From: a virus
DNA: 64,000 nucleotides
Strand: one strand, 5' to 3'
Virus genome (UHGV): UHGV-0132893
The translations under genes and the position numbers were made by a program. The notes below the pieces were generated by a model, which was not told where the DNA came from, did no database searches, and worked only from the letters and a program-made list of their open reading frames with translations. Positions 45,093 through 64,000 of the stretch are shown here, in pieces (position 1 is the first letter of the stretch; every line of letters starts with the position of its first letter).

Positions 45093-46709
45093 TCAACGTC
45101 TAAGCCCCTCATATGGGTTTCCTCTCACTAAGTCTGTGTGAGCACCCATTGATGGTGGCTTGAATAATTTAACTTCGTTAAGACTGTTGAAAGCATCACT
45201 GGTAGCATCCACTTGGTCATCTTTAGTTTTACCATCACCACAAAAGCCTTCAAGCTCTTGAAAATAAGCTTCATTCCAACTACCTCTCAAGACTTTTACA
45301 AGTCCGGCTTCAGAAGCAGCAGAAAACCCCGCAAATCGGGTAACTTTATCTTTATTTGTTGGTTTAGCTCTTGCACGATAACCTTTCTCGGCAAGTTTCC
45401 TGATGAGGGATGTTGCGTAGGATTTACCAGCAGCGCCTGGGTCTTGAGGGATAAAAATACCAGTTCGCTTACCGTCACTTTCAGCAGTCAAATTAATTTG
45501 TGTTTCGACTCCAGAGGGTCTATCTCTAAATCTTACTACATCAATGATATAATAGCAACCGTCTTTTTTAGATTTACCCATCTTAACACCTGCTGTCCAG
45601 TCTGGGTTAGGGTTAATCTCAGATGGTAAAGTTGCTGCTAAGTCCCATGCTCTGACATCGAATACATCTTCTGGGAGTGAATCAACAATTTCACACCATT
45701 GTCTTTGCCAATAGTTTGAACCTTCTGCACGAGCCTTCCAGTTACCGAAACGAAGTCTTGCAACGTTTACAGGGGTGTTGTTTTCCAACTTACCACGATA
45801 TTTAGGTTCTAAGAAGTCAAGAATTGGGTTATCATCAATCGTACCAGAGATGAATGTATATGTTTGAGGAATCTCAAGAGGAAACATTTCAAGAATCTTG
45901 TCTCTCTCCCAATCAGAAACCATCACACCATCGTTCATTACATACCAACGAATACGACCACACTTTTCAGGGTCTGGATAACCTTCTTCATCTAAGAATG
46001 GCTCTACCCAATCGTAAATAAAGTGGTCTCTGTCTGGGTTCATAGAAATCTTCATGTATGAATCACCTTCAGCACCAGAACGTAGACGGGTTTGTAGGTA
46101 TGAAATCTGTGAAGCAGAGAAGTGTGTACCTTCGTCAAAGTAAATAGCTGAGTATTCAATACCCTGATGACCTTCAGCGTGCTTTTCAAGTTCTAGGTAG
46201 GTAAACTTGATAGTTGCCCCAGAAGGGAATGTGATAGTCATTTTCTGCTCGTGAGGAATCCCACCAAACTTACCAAATAGTTTCTTTGCAGCAGGCCATA
46301 AACCACCTTGTAGCTGTGTTGTATTTCGACGGAAATATACAGCATTATAGTTAGGGTCTTCAATAAATCTTAAAGAGTCCATTAACAATGCAGCAGTTTT
46401 ACCAGCACCAGCAGCACCACCATAAAGAACCAAGTCAGCATTAGTGTTTAAAAAGACCTCTTGAGAACCCGGCTGAGGGGCTACATAATTCTTATCAGTC
46501 ATCAATTTAAAGATAAGGCGAACTTGGTCTGGTGTGTATCTTAATAAAGTCAGAATTTGAGTTGGAAGGAATTTAGAGGGGTCTTTACCGAATGATTTGA
46601 TAATTTCTTTTACTTCATCAGAAAGCCCCAACTCTCCAGCTAGGACTTTCCTAACATCTTCCACTCGCTTCTGCTTAACAGCATTTAAGTCCATTAAGCG
46701 CCTCCGCAA
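45093..46709 (-). CDS. terminase large subunit
   Basis: Walker A LYGGAAGAGKTAAL; C-terminal nuclease-like acidic residues; 538 aa. Confidence 0.8.
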   Translation of the reverse strand: MRRRLMDLNAVKQKRVEDVRKVLAGELGLSDEVKEIIKSFGKDPSKFLPTQILTLLRYTPDQVRLIFKLMTDKNYVAPQPGSQEVFLNTNADLVLYGGAAGAGKTAALLMDSLRFIEDPNYNAVYFRRNTTQLQGGLWPAAKKLFGKFGGIPHEQKMTITFPSGATIKFTYLELEKHAEGHQGIEYSAIYFDEGTHFSASQISYLQTRLRSGAEGDSYMKISMNPDRDHFIYDWVEPFLDEEGYPDPEKCGRIRWYVMNDGVMVSDWERDKILEMFPLEIPQTYTFISGTIDDNPILDFLEPKYRGKLENNTPVNVARLRFGNWKARAEGSNYWQRQWCEIVDSLPEDVFDVRAWDLAATLPSEINPNPDWTAGVKMGKSKKDGCYYIIDVVRFRDRPSGVETQINLTAESDGKRTGIFIPQDPGAAGKSYATSLIRKLAEKGYRARAKPTNKDKVTRFAGFSAASEAGLVKVLRGSWNEAYFQELEGFCGDGKTKDDQVDATSDAFNSLNEVKLFKPPSMGAHTDLVRGNPYEGLRR

Positions 46710-46715
46710 ATAGAA

Positions 46716-46916
46716 TTATTCAGAGTCTGTAGCAGTCTCTTCTTTCTTAACTTCGAACTTTGCATCAACAGCATCAAGAAGTGCATCCATAGATGCTTCT
46801 TTAATATCAATACCTGTTGCTACAGATAATCTGTCTGCAATTGCCATGATAGTATTCTGCATAAATTCTAGCTTCTTATTAGCTTCATAAAGTTCTTTAT
46901 AAACGGTCTCGCTCAT
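46716..46916 (-). CDS. hypothetical small protein upstream of terminase
   Basis: 66 aa; too small for a typical small terminase. Confidence 0.4.
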   Translation of the reverse strand: MSETVYKELYEANKKLEFMQNTIMAIADRLSVATGIDIKEASMDALLDAVDAKFEVKKEETATDSE

Positions 46917-46951
46917 TATGTTTTCTCCAAATAGTTAACCATGTTTCCCCT

Positions 46952-46977
46952 TAAAAAAGACGGTACAGAGACCGTCA
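46952..46977 (-). terminator. rho-independent terminator separating tRNA array from late operon
   Basis: gacggt-ctctgt-accgtc hairpin followed by TTTTTT on minus strand. Confidence 0.5.
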
Positions 46978-47144
46978 AGGAGAAACCACAATGTACGTCA
47001 GAGACATACTGTATAAGACTTCTTATAAAGTATAACTCTGTAAAAAAGCCCTGTCTAAAAATACTCTTCGGTAGCGAAAGGAAGAATACTTATAGCAGGG
47101 CATTATTATTATTTTAATTGAGAGAGAGAGAGAGTAAAATAACT

Positions 47145-47220
47145 TGGAGAATCCGAAGGGACTCGAACCCTTATAAACCTGTTTTGCAGACAGGCACATA
47201 GCCATTTCTGTCACGGATTC
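47145..47220 (-). tRNA. tRNA-Cys (GCA)
   Basis: TGG (CCA) start on plus strand, T-arm aaggg-actcgaa-ccctt, anticodon arm cctgt-tttgcag-acagg. Confidence 0.6.
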
Positions 47221-47224
47221 AAAT

Positions 47225-47317
47225 TGGAGGAAGATACCAGACTTGAACTGGTACACCGATTTCTCAGCTACTGGCAGTTTAGCAAACTGCTCCCTTACCT
47301 TTTAGGGTTAATCTTCC
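47225..47317 (-). tRNA. tRNA-Ser (GCU), long variable arm
   Basis: T-arm accag-acttgaa-ctggt; anticodon arm gcagt-ttagcaa-actgc; acceptor ggaagat/atcttcc. Confidence 0.6.
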
Positions 47318-47319
47318 AT

Positions 47320-48054
47320 TTATTTCTGTAATGCGTTCTTCATTTCTGGTGTTGCAATAGTGTCAATTACACCAGTTTTACAAGCATCATCAAACCAGTC
47401 TGGTAAGATACCTGCTAAGAACCCATTGATATTCGTTTTAAGGTACTCTGCAATAAGAGAAGCTTCTTCTTCAATCATCTGCACAACTTCATCTGCATAA
47501 GCTGTAATCTTTGAGATACCTTCATTAATCTTACTAACAGCTTGGTTAGCTAAATCAGAAATAGTATCAAGACCTTTGTCAATAGCGTCTTGTAAGTCAC
47601 TTAATACATCATTAACACCGTCTAGTGCACTGTTAATCGTATCAATAGCTTTTTGGCCATACTCTGTAGCAACACCCATAATACCACTAAATGGTGTACA
47701 ACCAACTTGTTCACCTGCTGCACCCATAACATTAGAATAGCCTTTTGCTACCTGCATACGTGATGAGAACTCATCAATGGACTTTTGACCGTAATCTGTC
47801 AGTGTTTTGGTAGTTGATGTAGTGCTTGTCAGACTCGTGGTAAAGCTGTTAAGCAGAACTGTTGTAAGTCCAGCAGCAACAAGCTTATCCTTTACTGTAG
47901 GGTCTGATACAGAGCTAATAGAGCTTACAAGTGATGTAGAGGCAGCTACGGTTCCACCGAGAACTGCTGCACCAGTAATAAGGGGGTTAGAAAACCCTTT
48001 ACCAGTTTTTAAGAGATTGAAAATCTCCTTACCTTGTTCTGTCATCTCTTTCAT
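47320..48054 (-). CDS. hypothetical protein (Ser/Thr-rich N-terminus, helical C-terminus)
   Basis: ORF track 47320..48117 overlaps a tRNA; start moved to internal Met at 48054. Confidence 0.45.
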   Translation of the reverse strand: MKEMTEQGKEIFNLLKTGKGFSNPLITGAAVLGGTVAASTSLVSSISSVSDPTVKDKLVAAGLTTVLLNSFTTSLTSTTSTTKTLTDYGQKSIDEFSSRMQVAKGYSNVMGAAGEQVGCTPFSGIMGVATEYGQKAIDTINSALDGVNDVLSDLQDAIDKGLDTISDLANQAVSKINEGISKITAYADEVVQMIEEEASLIAEYLKTNINGFLAGILPDWFDDACKTGVIDTIATPEMKNALQK

Positions 48055-48070
48055 TAAGCACCTTTGAAAT

Positions 48071-48147
48071 TGGTAGTCCAGTGGGATTTGAACCCTCTTC
48101 TCATGTTTTTCAGACACGCGCTTTAACCATATAAGCTACTTGGACTA
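48071..48147 (-). tRNA. tRNA, tentatively Phe (GAA)
   Basis: T-loop atttgaa, acceptor tagtcca/tggacta; anticodon loop ttttcag with 4/5-bp stem. Confidence 0.5.
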
Positions 48148-48152
48148 TAAAT

Positions 48153-48228
48153 TGGGGTGACCTACGGGATTTGAACCCGTATAGACCATGTTCACAGCAT
48201 GGGTCATTACCATTTATGATAAGGCCAC
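48153..48228 (-). tRNA. tRNA-His (GUG)
   Basis: T-arm acggg-atttgaa-cccgt; anticodon arm ccatg-ttcacag-catgg. Confidence 0.6.
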
Positions 48229-48259
48229 ATTTAAGGACTCTCGTAAGAATCCTTAGAAG

Positions 48260-48335
48260 TGGCAGCGGCATAAGGATTTGAACCTTAATAGGACAGCTTC
48301 AGAGACTGCTGCATTGCCAGTTATGCTATACCGCT
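48260..48335 (-). tRNA. tRNA, anticodon not resolved
   Basis: T-arm taagg-atttgaa-cctta, D-stem gcat/atgc, acceptor agcggca/(t)accgct. Confidence 0.5.
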
Positions 48336-48340
48336 AAATT

Positions 48341-48418
48341 TGGTACTCCATATCGGATTCGAACCGATACATAACACAGATTTTAAGTCTGGCCTCTCTG
48401 CCAATTGGAGTAATGGAG
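48341..48418 (-). tRNA. tRNA, anticodon tentative (loop reads UAA but no long variable arm)
   Basis: T-arm atcgg-attcgaa-ccgat; loop caga-ttttaag-tctg. Confidence 0.45.
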
Positions 48419-48421
48419 CAT

Positions 48422-48497
48422 TGGCGGGGGATGTTGGAATTGAACCAACTTCTTCGATTTCAAAGACCGAGGTTTTAACCTTGTAAACTAATCCCCT
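48422..48497 (-). tRNA. tRNA-Gln (UUG)
   Basis: T-arm gttgg-aattgaa-ccaac; anticodon loop ttcaaag; acceptor gggggat/atcccct. Confidence 0.55.
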
Positions 48498-48505
48498 TTA
48501 AATCT

Positions 48506-49063
48506 TTACTTTCTTAGTGGATGAATAAAGAATGCCAACATAACTCTTTCCCTTGAGAATGCTCTTTCTTTTGGAACAACACTTTTGAGTTTCCATCCAA
48601 CATAAATTCTCCAGTAGAATTGTTTACCAAAGATTTTAATTGATGGAATAAAAGCGAATAATCCCCAAGCATTACTGTTCCACATTAGGAGATAACCAGT
48701 CTGATTATCTTCAGGGTTAGAACTTACGTTGATATTACCTTTCCACTTAGTAACATCTTTTACATCTCTTCCTAACACATGGTAAGAGAAGTTATAAGCT
48801 TTGTTTCTCCAGAGCCATCCAACTCTCTGCATGTAGACACCAAGCTTACCAATCTTTCTAATCTTAGCCCATCGTTTGATATGACCTGCATCACCATCAA
48901 TTGGGTTGTCATAAGTCTCCATCCATCTGAACCCGAAAGGTAAGTGTCCTTTCTTCTCACTGTAGAATGGAACTACAAAAGGTGCTAAGATAACTGCTAA
49001 GATTGCTGCAAATGGTTCTAACAAAGCTAAGAAAATCCATGAAGCATACTTTAAGTATCTCAT
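48506..49063 (-). CDS. membrane protein embedded in tRNA array
   Basis: 185 aa; N-terminal hydrophobic helix WIFLALLEPFAAILAVILAPFVVPF. Confidence 0.45.
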   Translation of the reverse strand: MRYLKYASWIFLALLEPFAAILAVILAPFVVPFYSEKKGHLPFGFRWMETYDNPIDGDAGHIKRWAKIRKIGKLGVYMQRVGWLWRNKAYNFSYHVLGRDVKDVTKWKGNINVSSNPEDNQTGYLLMWNSNAWGLFAFIPSIKIFGKQFYWRIYVGWKLKSVVPKERAFSRERVMLAFFIHPLRK

Positions 49064-49302
49064 TGTCTAATCCTCGTAAGGAGGTAAATGTTATTATTCG
49101 TTTCTAAACCTTCTGGTAAAACTGTCTCAAAAATAACACTCTTCAGATGTCTACCACCAAAACAATCACGTATAAATCTTTCTACTCTAGCGGGGTCACA
49201 TAAGTATCCCACTTTTAAGAAAATGTGGTGTTCAACACCAATGACCCTGACAAACTCAATACTCTCACAGTTTTCATGTTCAACTACTGTTAATGTTTGC
49301 AT
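49060..49302 (-). CDS. hypothetical protein embedded in tRNA array
   Basis: 80-aa ORF coupled to downstream ORF. Confidence 0.4.
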   Translation of the reverse strand: MQTLTVVEHENCESIEFVRVIGVEHHIFLKVGYLCDPARVERFIRDCFGGRHLKSVIFETVLPEGLETNNNIYLLTRIRQ

Positions 49303-49319
49303 AGTATCACCTGTTTATC

Positions 49320-49395
49320 TGGCGCAGGATAAGGGATTCGAACCCCTATTAACAGCTTCGTAGACTGTTGCTCTTTCCATTTGAACTAATCCTGC
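49320..49395 (-). tRNA. tRNA-Arg (ACG)
   Basis: T-loop attcgaa; anticodon loop ttcgtag; acceptor gcaggat/atcctgc. Confidence 0.55.
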
Positions 49396-49401
49396 AAAAA
49401 T

Positions 49402-49480
49402 TGGTGTTCCAAGACGGATTCGAACCGTCACTAATACAAGGTTTGAGCTTGCATCCTCTGCCAATTGGGATACTGGAACA
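49402..49480 (-). tRNA. tRNA, anticodon tentative (loop reads CAA)
   Basis: T-arm gacgg-attcgaa-ccgtc; D-stem atcc/ggat; loop caag-gtttgag-cttg. Confidence 0.45.
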
Positions 49481-49555
49481 TGGTACTCACTAAAGGACTT
49501 GAACCTTTTTCTTCATCTTGTAAGGGTGATGTTTTACCATATAAACTAAGCGAGT
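49481..49555 (-). tRNA. tRNA-Val (UAC)
   Basis: T-arm aaagg-acttgaa-ccttt; anticodon arm tcatc-ttgtaag-ggtga. Confidence 0.6.
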
Positions 49556-49650
49556 ATGAAAGAGGTCTGGAGTTGTGCCGCTAACTCAACTCCGTGGTAT
49601 TTGTTACGGTCTTCAGTTGACTCAAAGCGGTCTTTCACTTGACCTCTTAA
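49556..49650 (-). ncRNA. tRNA-like / structured element lacking canonical T-loop
   Basis: 8-bp terminal complement aagaggtc...gacctctt and 7-bp internal stem ggagttg/caactcc; no GTTCGAAT-type T-loop. Confidence 0.3.
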
Positions 49651-49651
49651 T

Positions 49652-49727
49652 TGGTGCTCCCACAAGGACTCGAACCCTGATAAGTTGCTTACAAGGCAAC
49701 CGTAATAACCAATTATACGATAGGAGC
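49652..49727 (-). tRNA. tRNA-Thr (UGU)
   Basis: T-loop actcgaa; anticodon arm gttgc-ttacaag-gcaac. Confidence 0.6.
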
Positions 49728-49734
49728 ATTAATT

Positions 49735-49809
49735 TGGAGCATCCAGAGGGAATCGAACCCTCAACCTCAGTTTGGAAGACTGTAATTTTCCCGTTTAAAC
49801 TATGGATGC
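49735..49809 (-). tRNA. tRNA-Gly (UCC)
   Basis: T-arm gaggg-aatcgaa-ccctc; anticodon loop ttggaag; acceptor gcatcca/tggatgc. Confidence 0.55.
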
Positions 49810-49815
49810 ACTAAT

Positions 49816-49891
49816 TGGTGGAGTCACCGAGAATTGAACTCGGTTCCCAAGTTTGCAAAACTCGAGTTTTAACCATATAAACTATGACCCC
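49816..49891 (-). tRNA. tRNA-Ala (UGC)
   Basis: T-arm ccgag-aattgaa-ctcgg; anticodon loop ttgcaaa. Confidence 0.55.
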
Positions 49892-49897
49892 ATTGTT

Positions 49898-49973
49898 TGG
49901 TACAGGTGGAGGGAATTGAACCCATCGTCTTACTGATTAAGAGTCAGCCGCATAACCATTTTGCTACACCTGC
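49898..49973 (-). tRNA. tRNA-Lys (CUU), paralog of 51228..51303
   Basis: T-loop aattgaa; anticodon loop ctga-ttaagag-tcag; near-identical acceptor/T regions to Lys(UUU) copy. Confidence 0.5.
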
Positions 49974-49980
49974 ATTAATT

Positions 49981-50058
49981 TGGTAGGAGACAAGGGATTC
50001 GAACCCTCAAACACCAACTTCTAAGGATGGTAGGTTTACCAATTACCATCAATCTCCC
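49981..50058 (-). tRNA. tRNA, anticodon tentative (loop reads UAG)
   Basis: T-arm aaggg-attcgaa-ccctc; loop ccaac-ttctaag-gatgg. Confidence 0.45.
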
Positions 50059-50316
50059 ATTAAATCTTTTTAGAGAACTTCTAAGAACCTAAGCAACAAG
50101 GTTCCACAACAAGCTGTAATAACCTTAGAAGCCCTCTAAAAAGACCTAAAAAGGTCTTTGCATAGTCTTGTTTAATCCGGTGACTAGAACCTTTGGAGAG
50201 CTTGATATTATCTCTTCTCCGTGACACCTACTAGGTGTTTTATCAGTGTGTACGACAATACACGAGGGATACCAAAGCAACATCCGAATGAAGCTTGGCT
50301 TTAAAATCTTATTAGG

Positions 50317-50404
50317 CGGTAAGTAAAGGAGTCGAACCCTCACCGTATCTCTACAGTGGCAACTGTTTTCAAGACAGTTTGGCTACCATTAGCCGCTACC
50401 TACC
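50317..50404 (-). tRNA. tRNA-Ser (UGA), long variable arm, CCA apparently not encoded
   Basis: anticodon arm aactg-tttcaag-acagt; ~20-nt variable region; weak T-stem. Confidence 0.45.
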
Positions 50405-50417
50405 CCTAATAAGACTT

Positions 50418-50500
50418 TGGCATGGGACGGAGGAGTTGAACCCCTTTGAAACGGTTTTGGAGGCCGTTGCTCATGCCTTAGAGTCTTAACATCGTCCCAT
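50418..50500 (-). tRNA. tRNA-Trp (CCA), unusually long D region
   Basis: T-loop agttgaa; anticodon arm acggt-tttggag-gccgt; acceptor atgggac/gtcccat. Confidence 0.5.
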
Positions 50501-50643
50501 ACTATAATTCGAAGCTTACCGTATTATCTCAACACTGTAAAGCCCCTTCTCAGATTATTTACATGTTCTGGAAAACATGAGATACAGACCACCTCCCTAC
50601 AGGAAGACCCTCTAAGGTCGTCTAAGTAATCTGCTAACTAAAT

Positions 50644-50720
50644 TGGCACACCCTACAGGATTCGAACCTGTAACTAACGATTTAGAAGACCGTTGCTCTA
50701 TCCAATTGAACTAAGGGTGC
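50644..50720 (-). tRNA. tRNA-Arg (UCU)
   Basis: T-arm acagg-attcgaa-cctgt; anticodon loop ttagaag. Confidence 0.55.
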
Positions 50721-50995
50721 ATTAACATTTTAAAGGGTACTTATTGCATTTAAGCCAAGCCCCATAAGGGATACCCTTTAGAATGTTGCCCACCTTATTA
50801 ATCATACCGTGGGCGAGTACGCCAAATTCTTTGATGAGGGATTGGAAGACCTCACTGGTGTTTAGCCTATCAAGCTACTGCCAGAAAAACATTGTCGTTT
50901 GCATTTATTTTAAATTTGCAAAATAGACGCTACGCAACGAAAACTAAGGTTACTATAAAGTAGTCACATCTCAATGTCAACAACTTTATTGAAAT

Positions 50996-51071
50996 TGGTA
51001 CTGGTAGGTGGAATCGAACCACCGATGTTCCCTTATCAGGGGAGTGTTATAACCTTCTTAACTATACCAGC
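50996..51071 (-). tRNA. tRNA-Ile (GAU)
   Basis: T-arm ggtgg-aatcgaa-ccacc; anticodon arm ttccc-ttatcag-gggag. Confidence 0.6.
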
Positions 51072-57458: not shown

Positions 57459-57857
57459 ATGAAACTTTGGGCTAGTGACTTTGGAACTTTTAAGTACACT
57501 CGTAATGGCTCGCTTGTACGCATTGTCGGGAACAATGTGGTTTCAAGAGGTGACAAGGTATATACACGGTTTACTGTAGAGCTTGTTGAGCTGTCACCTA
57601 TTGAGTCTGTGAACAATGGCCTGTTCAAGTTTGAGACTTACAATGTCAACGAACATGGACAATTCAACCCTCTTGGTGAAAGTGGACTTGATATTATTTC
57701 AGAGCACCCATTGACAAAAGAGCAACTCGCAAGTTATTATAAAACTGTTCTGGAAAGGCAGTTAGCAACACATGAACAAGAAGCTAACTATCATTTACAA
57801 CATTGCGAAGCTTTAAGAGCAAAAATAGAACAAGCAGAGAGAGGTTTTTATGAATAA
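57459..57857 (+). CDS. hypothetical protein (3' third lies in tandem repeat copy 1)
   Basis: 132-aa ORF. Confidence 0.45.
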   Translation: MKLWASDFGTFKYTRNGSLVRIVGNNVVSRGDKVYTRFTVELVELSPIESVNNGLFKFETYNVNEHGQFNPLGESGLDIISEHPLTKEQLASYYKTVLERQLATHEQEANYHLQHCEALRAKIEQAERGFYE

Positions 57858-58493
57858 AGAGATTCAAGTAAAAGTTGACACCTTTGGCCATGATGGTCGA
57901 GAAGATGCTGGACTTGCTGACGCAGTGATTTTTGAGTGTAATGGAAATATTAGTCTTCGCTTTACAGGCTCAGGTAGCACCCTTCGCAGAATGCGAGATG
58001 ATGCAGATGGTTGCCCTGTATTTGGCTGGTATGACATGGAGTTTCCTCTTTACGCCATCCATTATCCAGATGGTGGAGAAGACTGGACAACTCAATCAAT
58101 CCGCGATGAGCTTAATGGCATTCCAGTTGAGCAAGAAGAGCAAGAGCCTGTTGAACTCACATTCACTTTTATCAAAGAAGAGAAAGTTGGTGATTTGTCT
58201 GTAACTGAAGCAATTCAAGTCTCACAGGTTATTCGTTAATGAGTAAAGTACAGGTTGTTTTCCCTATTTGTGACTTCTCACTAGAGCGTGAACTTGACCT
58301 GTACGAAGAAATTACTGACGAAATCATCTGGTCTGTTGTAGAAGAGGCTATCAAGAAACTGTATGGTGGCCTCTTAAACCCATCAAGTAAAAAGCTCAAT
58401 ACTAAACAAGTAGCTGATACGTACACTTCATACGATGCCTACAACAAACCTTTTGAGAATACCTGCTTTGACCTTATGGTAGGCAATAATAAA
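57645..58493. repeat. 849-bp tandem direct repeat, copy 1
   Basis: identical to 58494-59342; bounded by 6-bp microhomology gtcaac. Confidence 0.75.
57850..58239 (+). CDS. hypothetical acidic protein (copy 1 of duplicated gene)
   Basis: 129 aa, identical to ORF 58699..59088. Confidence 0.45.
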   Translation: MNKEIQVKVDTFGHDGREDAGLADAVIFECNGNISLRFTGSGSTLRRMRDDADGCPVFGWYDMEFPLYAIHYPDGGEDWTTQSIRDELNGIPVEQEEQEPVELTFTFIKEEKVGDLSVTEAIQVSQVIR

Positions 58494-58706
58494 GTCAACG
58501 AACATGGACAATTCAACCCTCTTGGTGAAAGTGGACTTGATATTATTTCAGAGCACCCATTGACAAAAGAGCAACTCGCAAGTTATTATAAAACTGTTCT
58601 GGAAAGGCAGTTAGCAACACATGAACAAGAAGCTAACTATCATTTACAACATTGCGAAGCTTTAAGAGCAAAAATAGAACAAGCAGAGAGAGGTTTTTAT
58701 GAATAA
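58239..58706 (+). CDS. chimeric ORF created by the tandem duplication
   Basis: N-terminal 85 aa identical to ORF 59088..59381, C-terminal ~68 aa identical to end of ORF 57459..57857. Confidence 0.4.
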   Translation: MSKVQVVFPICDFSLERELDLYEEITDEIIWSVVEEAIKKLYGGLLNPSSKKLNTKQVADTYTSYDAYNKPFENTCFDLMVGNNKVNEHGQFNPLGESGLDIISEHPLTKEQLASYYKTVLERQLATHEQEANYHLQHCEALRAKIEQAERGFYE

Positions 58707-59342
58707 AGAGATTCAAGTAAAAGTTGACACCTTTGGCCATGATGGTCGAGAAGATGCTGGACTTGCTGACGCAGTGATTTTTGAGTGTAATGGAAATATT
58801 AGTCTTCGCTTTACAGGCTCAGGTAGCACCCTTCGCAGAATGCGAGATGATGCAGATGGTTGCCCTGTATTTGGCTGGTATGACATGGAGTTTCCTCTTT
58901 ACGCCATCCATTATCCAGATGGTGGAGAAGACTGGACAACTCAATCAATCCGCGATGAGCTTAATGGCATTCCAGTTGAGCAAGAAGAGCAAGAGCCTGT
59001 TGAACTCACATTCACTTTTATCAAAGAAGAGAAAGTTGGTGATTTGTCTGTAACTGAAGCAATTCAAGTCTCACAGGTTATTCGTTAATGAGTAAAGTAC
59101 AGGTTGTTTTCCCTATTTGTGACTTCTCACTAGAGCGTGAACTTGACCTGTACGAAGAAATTACTGACGAAATCATCTGGTCTGTTGTAGAAGAGGCTAT
59201 CAAGAAACTGTATGGTGGCCTCTTAAACCCATCAAGTAAAAAGCTCAATACTAAACAAGTAGCTGATACGTACACTTCATACGATGCCTACAACAAACCT
59301 TTTGAGAATACCTGCTTTGACCTTATGGTAGGCAATAATAAA
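58494..59342. repeat. 849-bp tandem direct repeat, copy 2
   Basis: identical to 57645-58493. Confidence 0.75.
58699..59088 (+). CDS. hypothetical acidic protein (copy 2)
   Basis: identical to ORF 57850..58239. Confidence 0.45.
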   Translation: MNKEIQVKVDTFGHDGREDAGLADAVIFECNGNISLRFTGSGSTLRRMRDDADGCPVFGWYDMEFPLYAIHYPDGGEDWTTQSIRDELNGIPVEQEEQEPVELTFTFIKEEKVGDLSVTEAIQVSQVIR

Positions 59343-59381
59343 GTCAACTATTTCTTCGTCAGGGAGTTTAACGATGAGTAA
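59088..59381 (+). CDS. hypothetical protein (5' part in repeat copy 2)
   Basis: 97-aa ORF. Confidence 0.45.
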   Translation: MSKVQVVFPICDFSLERELDLYEEITDEIIWSVVEEAIKKLYGGLLNPSSKKLNTKQVADTYTSYDAYNKPFENTCFDLMVGNNKVNYFFVREFNDE

Positions 59382-61885: not shown

Positions 61886-62339
61886 AGAAGTAGTGCAAAG
61901 AGCAATGCTTGACAATTCTACTAAAGATGAGATGTACACAGAAATTTGTGATAAGTTGAACTGCTCAAGACATGCTGCTAAGGTTCTTGTACATTGTTTT
62001 ATTTGGGAATGCTCAGAAGCTTATATGAAACACGTAGCTTTTGAGAGTTCTCATTTACTCGGTGATGCAAAAATAGGTGTAGCACTAAAAGAGCCTGAGA
62101 TGAAAACAGTACCTAAAGTTGGTAATGTGTATAAACTAAAAAATTTTATTACAGGCGAGATTGTTGCAGAAGGTGAAGTGCAACAGGTTTATCATGATGG
62201 TAAATATCTGTTTAAGATATTCGAGTATGATAGTCGTTACAGACACTTATGTGGGATTACATTTTTAGTTTCAGAAGATGACCTCATCAAGAACAATAGT
62301 AATAAATTCGCAGTACCAGAATATCAAGTTTTACGATAA
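61875..62339 (+). CDS. hypothetical protein
   Basis: 154-aa ORF. Confidence 0.45.
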   Translation: MKIKEVVQRAMLDNSTKDEMYTEICDKLNCSRHAAKVLVHCFIWECSEAYMKHVAFESSHLLGDAKIGVALKEPEMKTVPKVGNVYKLKNFITGEIVAEGEVQQVYHDGKYLFKIFEYDSRYRHLCGITFLVSEDDLIKNNSNKFAVPEYQVLR

Positions 62340-62352
62340 TGGTGTGATAGAT

Positions 62353-62901
62353 ATGGAAAAAGATAACTTAAAAGAAGTTGAAGGTAACTACTTAGTACTT
62401 GACTGGAAGGATGTTCGGGAAGCACTCTCCGAAGAAAATCTTGACTGGTTCGAACAAATTATCTTTGCAGTACGGCATAACCGAGAAGTTGAAAATGGTA
62501 AAGAGCCACTTGAAGGAATCTTTGTAGAAAGGTCTTATCCATTCTATGAAGACACTTTGCAGAAAGTTAAGATGTACTTTAAACAGAAGAACCGTAAAGT
62601 GGTCACTATGGTATCTCTTGGTGGACAGAGTATGTCTGTGATGGAAGATATCAACCCTAAGAGACCGAGTAAAGGCGTTTGTATAAAAATCACAGGTCAT
62701 GAAGAGTATATCTCAGTAGATGACTTTAGAGCATTCTGTAGTGGTTCTTGTGTCTTTAATGGTTTTCACTATGATATCCGAGTGTACCCAATCAAGGGAG
62801 ATGATATCATGATGCAGGTATTCGATAATAACAATGGATTTACTCATTTTTATCAGACAACCAAGTCATCATTGAAAACAGTTCTGGAAACACTGATTTA
62901 A
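62353..62901 (+). CDS. hypothetical protein
   Basis: ORF track 62278..62901; internal ATG 62353 avoids 61-nt overlap with upstream gene. Confidence 0.4.
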   Translation: MEKDNLKEVEGNYLVLDWKDVREALSEENLDWFEQIIFAVRHNREVENGKEPLEGIFVERSYPFYEDTLQKVKMYFKQKNRKVVTMVSLGGQSMSVMEDINPKRPSKGVCIKITGHEEYISVDDFRAFCSGSCVFNGFHYDIRVYPIKGDDIMMQVFDNNNGFTHFYQTTKSSLKTVLETLI

Positions 62902-62911
62902 AATATCTTAA

Positions 62912-62937
62912 GAGCCTCCTTAATCGGGGGCTTTTTA
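62912..62937 (+). terminator. terminator-like hairpin
   Basis: gagcctcc...gggggct imperfect stem followed by TTTTT. Confidence 0.35.
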
Positions 62938-62949
62938 ATTTTTATAAAA

Positions 62950-64000
62950 TTTATCGGTTGTCCCAACCGCTGGGTCACCATCATATGTGAATAAAATATC
63001 TACCCTTCTTAACAACCTTCTTAATCTTACTCTCTATATAGTTATATAGTACTATATAGTATCTTAGTATCTATCTAGTGGTCTTAATAGCCCCTCTGTA
63101 TAGCCCTTCTAAACACTCTTCTAACAAGCCTTCTTAACAACCTATACAATCACCTTAACCATCTCTCTACACCCTCTTAGAAGCTCCTATACACCTCTTA
63201 ATCTCTAGGTTAGCTATGTTACCCTCTATAGGTGTTCACTAGGCACTACTAAGCCTCTATATAGACTGTTTTAACAAACTTAACAGGAATATCTTTACAG
63301 ACCTTATCTCACAAGGTCTAACACGGTACTAACAAGGTATCTTATAAGCCTGTTTCTACCTGTATTTTTAAAAGACTGTCTAGGTAATTATTCAGAATTT
63401 TAAAATTTTTATAAAATAGGACTATCAAGTCATTTTTTAGGGTCTTTGAAGGGACTGAAAAATATCTGTAGAAGATGTATATCTGCTTGGTAGCCCTTAA
63501 CAGCCCTGTAACATCCCCTTTGCAAAATTTTAAAATATCCTTAACAATCTCTTAACAACTCTCTCAAGCTCTTAACAACTCTTCAAAAGTCTTAACAGAT
63601 TCTTAACAGAACTAACAAGGCTGTAACAGTTTTCTAACAAGTGCTGAATAGTCTTTACAGAATCTTAACAGATAACTAACGAGAGCTAACAAGTTAATTT
63701 TAAAGAGTTATTTTGTAGGGATAATTAACAAGTTCCTAACAAGTGTTTAATCTTTTTAACAAGCTATTAACATGGTCACTATCTCTTTTCTTATCGTTCC
63801 CTTTCCCTCTTAGTGATTCTCTAAATAGCCCTCTTAAAAGCTCTCTATAGCTCCTTGTAAGCTCTTTTAAGTCTCTTCCTAGTAATTACACCCCAACTAT
63901 ACAGACACCTCTTTATAGGGCTTTACAGAGGCTTTAAAGGCTATGCTAAAGACTCTTACAAGGCTTTTACGTGGTCTTAACAGAGATTTAACAAGGGGCT
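62950..64000. repeat. ORF-free array of short motifs: about 25 copies of CTTAACA(A/G)/CTAACAAG, plus TATATAGT and CTCTATAG copies
   Basis: e.g. cttaacaact at 63552 and 63571, cttaacagat at 63590; tatatagt x3 at 63036-63060; plus strand G-poor; no ORF >60 aa. Confidence 0.7.

Follow-up and report, generated by a model that had tools for sequence, protein, structure and literature searches.

A helically phased TGTTA repeat array at the predicted genome ends of a Felix O1-like myovirus resembles binding sites of the host regulator ArcA~P

Results

Location and coding content of the region

In this study we analyzed a 64,000-nucleotide stretch of viral DNA (UHGV virus genome UHGV-0132893, one strand, hereafter the window), and in particular its right-hand end, positions 62902-64000, which carries an array of short direct repeats reading TAACA on the plus strand and TGTTA on the minus strand. 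The region was found to be 93-96% identical to more than 200 Felixounavirus records, and the window comes from a member of this genus, a group of Felix O1-like myoviruses that infect E. coli, Salmonella and Shigella. According to the open reading frame (ORF) list, the upstream stop codon lies at 62901, and the longest ORFs in 62902-64000 encode 31 and 35 amino acids (aa). An earlier note on this DNA, made from the letters alone, had reported that no ORF over 60 aa occurs here and that the array directly follows a terminator. Both observations hold, the former for the whole of 62902-64000 (longest ORF 35 aa) and the latter with an intrinsic terminator at 62910-62935.

In annotated relatives, the region corresponds to the left two-thirds of a gap of approximately 1.65 kb (1,655 bp in KEP3 and 1,662 bp in Bas63), which separates two convergent gene clusters. 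The genes flanking the gap are convergent small hypothetical genes, and in Felix O1 the homologous gap lies between ORF24 and ORF23. The array does not run out at the window edge, as had been assumed from the window itself; the relatives show approximately 560 bp more. The description of the plus strand as strongly C/T-rich proved overstated, with pyrimidines amounting to 56% (60% in 62950-63350), which is not the extreme of the window. A true base asymmetry nevertheless exists in the form of G depletion (12.8% G vs. 21.9% C), with a GC skew down to -0.45.

Hidden coding genes, non-coding RNA and promoters were considered as possible contents of the gap and rejected. The longest ORFs of the gap encode 31-35 aa within the window, and in KEP3 53 aa; the annotation of small ORFs in the gap varies among GenBank records, and these ORFs are disrupted by 1-, 11- and 22-bp indels. 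An Rfam scan of the whole KEP3 gap returned two sub-threshold chance matches, the best with an E-value of 0.33, and sigma-70-like sites numbered 5 vs. 4.4 in shuffles.

A strand-biased and helically phased repeat array

The repeats greatly exceed the numbers expected from the rate in the rest of the window. Eleven copies of CTTAACA were found in the region, all on the plus strand, vs. 0.23 expected, and CTAACAAG occurs six times vs. 0.03 expected. The 5-nt core TAACA is present 25 times on the plus and once on the minus strand, with 1.7 copies expected per strand, which bears out the claim of a strand-biased array above chance. The count of about 25 copies given in the earlier note is correct for this core only, as the motifs stated there, CTTAACA[AG] or CTAACAAG, match 17 sites. 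No other 500-bp stretch of the window has five or more YTAACAR sites, so the cluster is unique within the 64 kb.

Nine of the 24 distances between successive TAACA cores are 11 bp, a number reached in none of 20,000 random placements; four are 20-21 bp, two are 9 bp and one is 13 bp. Autocorrelation across the whole region peaks at lags of 11, 21-22 and 31-32, and Tandem Repeats Finder reports periods of 10-12 and 20. The proposed helical-turn phasing of the motif is confirmed by all three analyses, and since the pairs are mainly exactly 11 bp apart, the copies lie on one face of the helix. Regarding the other repeats that had been pointed out, the three direct TATATAGT copies were recovered at 63035, 63043 and 63053, while exact CTCTATAG sites are present at 63224 and 63843 only, the sequence near 63030 and 63253 being CTCTATATAG.

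The features of the region are given below, where DTR stands for direct terminal repeat and scores in bits refer to the ArcA-box matrix, both described in the following sections.

62910-62935, plus strand: intrinsic terminator, a ten-pair stem followed by a T-run; it closes the plus-strand gene cluster, whose last gene is 62278-62901.
62936-63488, no strand assigned: unique non-coding left flank of the concatemer junction, between the last plus-strand gene and the terminal repeat; seven TAACA cores on the plus strand with approximately 11-bp periodicity; homologous to the Felix O1 ORF24-ORF23 gap.
63034-63079, plus strand: short tandem array with three copies of TATATAGT and a period of 8-10 bp; its counterpart in phage mio is annotated merely as "repeat_region".
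63351-63488, no strand assigned: A+T-rich spacer (73% A+T, 138 bp) just outside the left DTR boundary, with zero TAACA cores.
63480-63495, no strand assigned: conserved left DTR boundary, TATCTGCTT followed by GGTAGCC, with the predicted physical end between 63488 and 63489.
63489-64000, no strand assigned: first 512 bp of the approximately 580-bp DTR, the remaining 68 bp lying past the window; homologous to the 581-bp DTR of Pr103Blw and the 570-bp repeat_region of HP1.
63497-63514, minus strand: terminus-proximal TGTTA pair with 11-bp spacing, 8 bp inside the left end and facing it; ArcA-box score 10.3 bits; likewise in HP1.
63530-63773, minus strand: dense block of 14 TGTTA cores (TAACA on the plus strand), mostly 11-bp pairs, with the pairs 20-21 bp apart.
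63790-63975, plus strand: degenerate 10-12-bp periodic units such as CTCTTAAAAG, CTCTATAG, CTTGTAAG and CTTTACAG, weaker motif variants within the DTR, seen by Tandem Repeats Finder and in the sequence.
63977-64000, minus strand: beginning of the right-end cluster, which the window cuts off after two forward repeats and one base of the third; ArcA-box score 17.9 bits at 63977-63994.

The array spans both predicted genome ends

Comparison with relatives indicated that the virion DNA very probably ends within this gap. When the entire gap of the closest relative was used as query, many GenBank records were seen to begin or end within it. A "short direct terminal repeat" of 581 bp is annotated in phage Pr103Blw, exactly identical at both ends of its record; recurrence at the other genome end, which the earlier note had wanted checked, is seen in this relative. 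The Pr103Blw paper derived the DTR with PhageTerm. Alignment of Pr103Blw to the window places the left junction, TATCTGCTT on one side and GGTAGCCCTTAACAG on the other, between 63488 and 63489, and the right junction, TGTTAAGAAATTGTTAAGAAAATGTTAAGGGGGC followed by TAGCATTTACG, 68 bp beyond the window (64068-equivalent).

Both boundaries coincide with record ends in other phages. At the left junction the Pr103Blw record has its right end and that of Suspvirus EcSzw_1 its first base, and the record of Erwinia phage vEam_W_28 (Kolesnikvirus) ends within 2 nt of it. The right terminus is nucleotide 1 of the records of Ro111lw, H12 and Mooglevirus HP1, the H12 record having been opened exactly there after PhageTerm analysis, and HP1 has an annotated repeat_region of 570 bp. 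Short DTRs were also reported by PhageTerm for Kolesnikvirus, and for UAB_Phi87 Bal31 digestion together with run-off sequencing gave a DTR of 608 bp. The conserved boundaries enclose 614 bp in UAB_Phi87 and 569-614 bp in seven relatives. The Bal31-sensitive SpeI fragments of UAB_Phi87 are the two that abut the gap, with reported lengths of 4322 and 2819 bp vs. 4431 and 2751 bp predicted. The suggestion that the region lies at or near a genome terminus is thus borne out by way of the relatives, with boundaries between 63488 and 63489 and 68 bp beyond the window. The ground offered for it, an array reaching the window edge, was coincidental. By homology, the two boundaries are where the concatemer is cut, which leaves one copy of the array at each virion end.

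Two independent short-read contigs from Logan and ENA assemblies, which include the 207-aa flanking gene, were observed to stop near the predicted right terminus, 6 nt short of it in L026 and 35 nt beyond it in L024. Such stops fit a coverage or assembly break at a physical end.

The right-end cluster, of which the window shows only the beginning, could be followed in the relatives. There, four forward repeats are succeeded by three inverted repeats, all at 11 bp and abutting the right terminus. The continuation in KEP3, Pr103Blw and other relatives reads TTGTTAAGAAATTGTTAAGAAAATGTTAAGGGGGC up to the terminus, with boxes of 22.5 and 22.7 bits, and the last inverted repeat stops 6 bp from the end. 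In a composite gap made of the window and the KEP3 continuation we counted 29 forward and 5 inverted cores, with 7 forward cores in the left unique flank and 19 in the DTR. Read 5′ to 3′ inward, both virion ends start with CCCTTAACA-N4-6-(T)TAACA, with a local alignment score of 13-15 vs. 7 ± 1.6 in shuffles. The copies closest to each DNA end point outward.

The repeats match the core and spacing of ArcA~P sites

According to Park et al., the site bound by ArcA~P consists of 10-bp direct-repeat elements with the most conserved core 5′-TGTTA-3′, spaced 11 bp centre-to-centre; extra elements lie at 11 or 22 bp, and chromosomal sites contain 2-5 elements. Read on the minus strand, the array consists of TGTTA(A) direct repeats 11 bp apart centre-to-centre and matches this published core and spacing, a likeness that the earlier note had not remarked on. 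For a quantitative comparison we used an 18-bp matrix built from 115 of the 128 ArcA boxes that these authors published, determined by chromatin immunoprecipitation with sequencing (ChIP-seq), without cross-validation, on which the training sites score 9.6-21.5 bits (median 15.7).

With this matrix, 62902-64000 contains 15, 9 and 6 boxes at thresholds of at least 9, 12 and 15 bits, respectively, vs. 1.7, 0.38 and 0.07 in dinucleotide shuffles. Five boxes of at least 15 bits occur in the remaining 62.9 kb of the window, both strands included. The array boxes in the window score 10-18.8 bits, i.e., inside the training range, and those of the dense block, all on the minus strand, are as follows.

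63530-63547, minus strand: ArcA-box match, 15.3 bits.
63541-63558, minus strand: ArcA-box match, 18.8 bits.
63592-63609, minus strand: ArcA-box match, 14.6 bits.
63623-63640, minus strand: ArcA-box match, 15.9 bits.
63665-63682, minus strand: ArcA-box match, 13.0 bits.
63725-63742, minus strand: ArcA-box match, 15.0 bits.
63756-63773, minus strand: ArcA-box match, 17.7 bits.

The triple repeat at the right terminus of the relatives (22.5 and 22.7 bits, and 23.4 bits in HP1) lies above the best training site of 21.5 bits. Boxes scoring 12 bits or more number 12-16 here in each of the four genera compared. The matrix matches inside the A+T-rich spacer (63351-63488) consist of A and T only and lack the TGTTA core, and the concatemer junction of T7 has zero boxes of at least 12 bits, its best scoring 10.8 bits. 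In sequence terms, then, the region shows what marks an ArcA~P site, namely TGTTA direct repeats, 11-bp spacing and matrix scores in the range of true sites. Other motifs of the OmpR/PhoB family (OmpR with 10-bp spacing, PhoP TGTTTA, PmrA YTTAAK) were also compared with the array and presumably fit less well.

We also looked for an ArcA- or CreB-like protein encoded by the phage itself. When full-length ArcA and CreB and their C-terminal domains were used as queries, the six-frame ORFs of the window and of the complete Bas63 genome yielded no match below E = 0.4, phmmer --max being insensitive to remote winged-helix folds.

As to the metabolic genes of these phages, the Bas63 record encodes at 46630-51054 (L023 1630-6054) the anaerobic ribonucleotide reductase NrdD, split by a homing endonuclease, together with NrdG, and Bas63 also encodes the aerobic NrdAB and nicotinamide adenine dinucleotide (NAD)-salvage enzymes. 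The presence of NrdD/NrdG besides NrdAB means that the phage is equipped for low-oxygen hosts, and together with NAD salvage it indicates adaptation to such hosts.

Repeat cores and phase are conserved among Ounavirinae

The array is conserved in four genera of Ounavirinae. In an alignment of eleven DTRs from three genera, the core columns were 97.5% conserved and 83% invariant, vs. 88.4% and 49% for the other columns (p = 3e-12). DTR lengths of 569/570, 580/581, 590/591 and 614 bp differ by 11- and 22-bp indels. In the Erwinia phages, BLAST similarity is reduced to approximately 120 bp at the left boundary, yet the DTR is filled with the same cores. The conservation of the cores and the 11-bp-step lengths therefore indicate selection on the cores and on their helical phase, as a phased protein-binding array would be expected to show. 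The Kolesnikvirus boxes scoring 11 bits or more, 16 in total, are confined to the DTR, with minus-strand boxes in the left half and plus-strand boxes in the right half, each facing the nearer end.

Several further observations concern how the repeats vary. A 22-bp insert, GGGATTGGTAACAATACCAATT, with one TAACA core, occupies two different DTR positions in UAB_Phi87 and PC79-13, which belong to different genera, and this suggests mobility or duplication of the repeat units in modules of 22 bp. To the right of the DTR, the Erwinia Kolesnikvirus phages have a second array, (C/T)TTAGAAG at steps of approximately 10-12 bp (L017 2456-3021; L015 as the reverse complement). Felixounaviruses have CTTTATAG/CTTATAAG-like units there instead, in addition to a duplicated ACGTAACTTT just outside the right terminus.

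To see how general such arrays are, we scanned IMG/VR for four TGTTA repeats at 11 bp, which returned at least 120 loci. Thirteen of these were Ounavirinae, and most of the others were perfect 11-bp microsatellites in A+T-rich contigs, for which reason the scan is uninformative on generality. Imperfect arrays with at least four TGTTA at 11 bp, some near the ends of the fetched stretches, were seen in the non-Ounavirinae contigs L119, L120, L036, L076, L105 and L034.

Terminase locus and other features of the window

The large terminase ORF lies at 45093-46916 (likely start MDLNAVKQK) and has approximately 75-80 residues before its Walker A motif; an acidic ORF of 66 aa comes ahead of it. Among the five ORFs upstream of the large terminase, a small terminase could not be recognised, their matches being limited to DUF7217, DUF7338 and PHROG families of unknown function; the 77-aa ORF among them does not resemble a real gene. 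The Felix O1 paper did not find a small terminase either.

Elsewhere in the window, a perfect tandem duplication with an 849-bp period and 6 bp of microhomology at the junction was seen at 57645-59348. It doubles a 129-aa gene (57850-58239 equals 58699-59088) and gives rise to a 155-aa ORF (58239-58706), a chimera that joins the N-terminus of a 97-aa ORF to the C-terminus of a 132-aa ORF. Phages fjerdesal, Felix O1 and UAB_Phi87 have one copy of the segment; the duplication is either a recent microhomology-mediated event or an assembly artefact. The tetranucleotide GATC occurs 0 times in the 64,000-nt window vs. approximately 205 expected, and is also missing from every one of the phage loci fetched (L001-L026), among them those of the Erwinia phages and the complete Bas63 genome of 87 kb. 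The palindromes ATGCAT, GAATTC, CTGCAG and CAGCTG are likewise absent, which indicates strong avoidance of restriction or Dam sites.

Discussion

Our analysis directly establishes the location of the array, its statistics, its conservation, the homology-based termini and the match to the ArcA matrix. On this basis the region is very probably the non-coding genome-end (concatemer-junction) segment of a Felix O1-like myovirus, whose packaged linear DNA bears a DTR of approximately 580 bp, from 63489 to 68 bp past the window, the concatemer being cut at both boundaries. The 25 or more direct cores, TAACA on the plus and TGTTA on the minus strand, may assemble a phased, cooperative protein lattice on each terminal repeat, and such a lattice could mark and arrange the ends in the service of cutting and packaging, of end protection or of replication control. 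Positioning or licensing of the two cuts, or protection of the ends, appears most plausible because the outermost high-affinity sites lie 6-9 bp from the cuts and face outward. Judging from the site architecture and the matrix fit, the best candidate for the binder would be the host response regulator ArcA~P, which is active at low oxygen, and we put the chances that ArcA~P is indeed the protein that binds the array at about even.

The fuller proposal, namely that Felix O1-like phages load host ArcA~P onto both ends of their genome, is advanced tentatively. Each repeat of approximately 580 bp would then carry about ten dimer sites and, 6 bp from the DNA tip, a better-than-consensus triple site. 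To our knowledge, this would be the first known case of a two-component response regulator used at phage termini. The lattice might have one or more of several roles. It might stand in for a "small terminase" or act as an architectural factor, supplied by the host, that places the two cuts; it might cap the linear ends against RecBCD, one study having attributed no RecBCD inhibitor to the relative Bas63; or it might bring the two ends together for recombination. A further option is titration, in which ArcA~P would be drawn off as genome copies rise, and host respiratory carbon-oxidation genes would be de-repressed in the low-oxygen gut.

Among known systems, the short DTRs of other Ounavirinae (581 bp in Pr103Blw, 608 bp in UAB_Phi87 and 570 bp in HP1) are homologous in sequence, have the same boundaries and occupy the same position relative to the ORF24/ORF23 homologues. 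By analogy of architecture, the concatemer junction of T7 is closest. In T7 (NC_001604) we found 13 copies of CCTAAAG on one strand in 13-bp steps, to the left of, within and to the right of the 160-bp terminal repeat, so that both junctions are non-coding and have a strand-specific short motif in near-helical phase inside and beside a short DTR. T7 differs in its motif and spacing (CCTAAAG at 13 bp vs. TAACA at 11 bp) and is without inverted copies at the cut site, and for these reasons the region is not a member of the T7 sequence family. T7 also has a recognised small terminase, gp18, whereas none is recognisable in this phage.

With the chromosomal ArcA~P sites of E. coli the array shares TGTTA at 11 bp, added repeats one or two turns off and scores within or above the ChIP-seq range. 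It departs from them in the number of repeats, approximately 25-30 in 1.1-1.7 kb vs. 2-5, in having no promoter overlap, in the placement of the putative phage sites within a terminal repeat and their orientation to the DNA ends, and in the frequent TGTTAG and the pairs 20-21 bp apart. In lambda cosB (R sites with IHF), P1 pac (hexamers with IHF) and SPP1 pacL/pacR, short repeats flank the terminase cut and a host bending or oligomerising factor may help. These phages have cohesive ends or headful DNA rather than exact short DTRs, and their elements number 3-7 with known binding proteins. The present system contrasts with them in having two cut sites 580 bp apart, each flanked by repeats. Iteron origins and parS sites also have helically phased direct repeats with an A+T-rich segment nearby. 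Here, however, neither a Rep nor a ParB gene lies next to the repeats, DnaA boxes do not form a cluster and a palindromic parS is missing; the units are also of the wrong size, and the array follows the DNA termini.

With the same termini, the array could instead be read by a packaging protein of the phage, either a small-terminase-like factor or an N-terminal extension of the large terminase, which would wrap the phased sites and place both cuts; the ArcA likeness would then be coincidental or convergent. We consider this possible, though rather unlikely. Outward-facing repeats 6-9 bp from both cut sites would suit such a protein, repeated terminase-binding elements beside cleavage sites are usual in lambda cosB, SPP1 pac and P1 pac, and T7 has an analogous strand-specific array around its terminal repeat. 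A candidate protein is harder to name: the TerL ORF does have approximately 80 residues before Walker A, some of them preceding the likely start codon, but nothing recognisable as a small terminase was seen, and none of the five ORFs ahead of the large terminase has an informative Pfam or PHROG match. The motif itself can be argued either way. Its TGTTAG variants and the 20-21-bp pair spacing depart from ArcA preferences, and the phage packages well aerobically; yet the independent ArcA-matrix fit covers flanking and spacer positions and at the terminus beats every chromosomal training site, and the motif is unchanged over four genera whose hosts share ArcA.

An iteron-type origin or replication-control element in the terminal region, with an initiator or regulator binding the repeats beside 63351-63488, is improbable, and the earlier note's suggestion of such an origin did not stand up. 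The helically phased direct repeats do lie next to a 138-bp stretch of 73% A+T, but their units are 5-bp cores at 11 bp, unlike iterons of 17-22 bp, and the single DnaA-box-like site is at chance level. Boxes of ArcA type are present and ArcA~P is said to be able to block the opening of oriC, which would make it a possible regulator; no literature mapping the origin of these phages was found. Against an origin, the region lacks an adjacent initiator gene, the genes on both sides run towards it, and the Kolesnikvirus array is limited to the DTR and oriented to two ends, which suits an end function better than a single unwinding site. The parS reading likewise fails, as the repeats are direct rather than palindromic, no ParB gene is adjacent and no partition gene is annotated in the complete Bas63 genome. 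Least probable, in our view, is that the array has no dedicated binder, the periodic sequence being a structural or neutral by-product of slippage or encoding small RNAs or peptides. The unit number does vary in 11-bp steps, showing slippage, but the cores are more conserved than the spacers, the array is kept in four genera even where overall identity is lost, and its orientation is tied to the termini. Small ORFs are annotated in the gap in some GenBank records, but inconsistently, and they are broken by 1-bp and 11-bp indels; no Rfam family matched (best E-value 0.33), and promoter-like sites are at chance level.

Several points weigh against ArcA~P as the binder and against the exactness of the assigned ends. 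TGTTAG is found in 10 of 29 forward sites, and G at this position is rare in the ChIP-seq repeats (-2.95 bits). The pairs are 20-21 bp apart rather than 22 bp, and published ArcA footprints show that a 12-bp spacing is not bound. ArcA binding is deduced here from sequence, and a phage protein of equal specificity would give an identical picture. Moreover, aerobic laboratory cultures, in which there is little ArcA~P, support good growth of these phages, so ArcA cannot be strictly required. As regards the ends, the SpeI fragments of UAB_Phi87 deviate from prediction by 68-109 bp, an approximate rather than exact agreement, and the termini of this isolate are assigned by homology to relatives, with the right boundary lying outside the window.

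The DTR of these phages was already known and annotated, and the identity of the region is for that reason ordinary; the internal organisation of the array and its ArcA-type signature are new. Reports on Ounavirinae DTRs give length and position only. Neither the array, its phasing and end orientation nor its likeness to ArcA sites appears in any searchable paper, and within the same literature no paper links ArcA to the terminal array.

The choice of cut sites and the duplication of the repeat in phages with exact short DTRs are poorly understood outside T7, and Felix O1-like phages add to this puzzle because they have no recognisable small terminase. The region described here offers a concrete, conserved cis-element, outward, 11-bp-phased TGTTA repeats at both ends, together with a specific candidate for its binder, ArcA~P. 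If ArcA is not the binder, the array would still be an obvious bait for the missing DNA-recognition factor. If ArcA is the binder, maturation of the phage genome or protection of its ends would be linked to the oxygen status of the host, a link that would be relevant for gut-derived phages widely used in the typing and biocontrol of Salmonella and E. coli.

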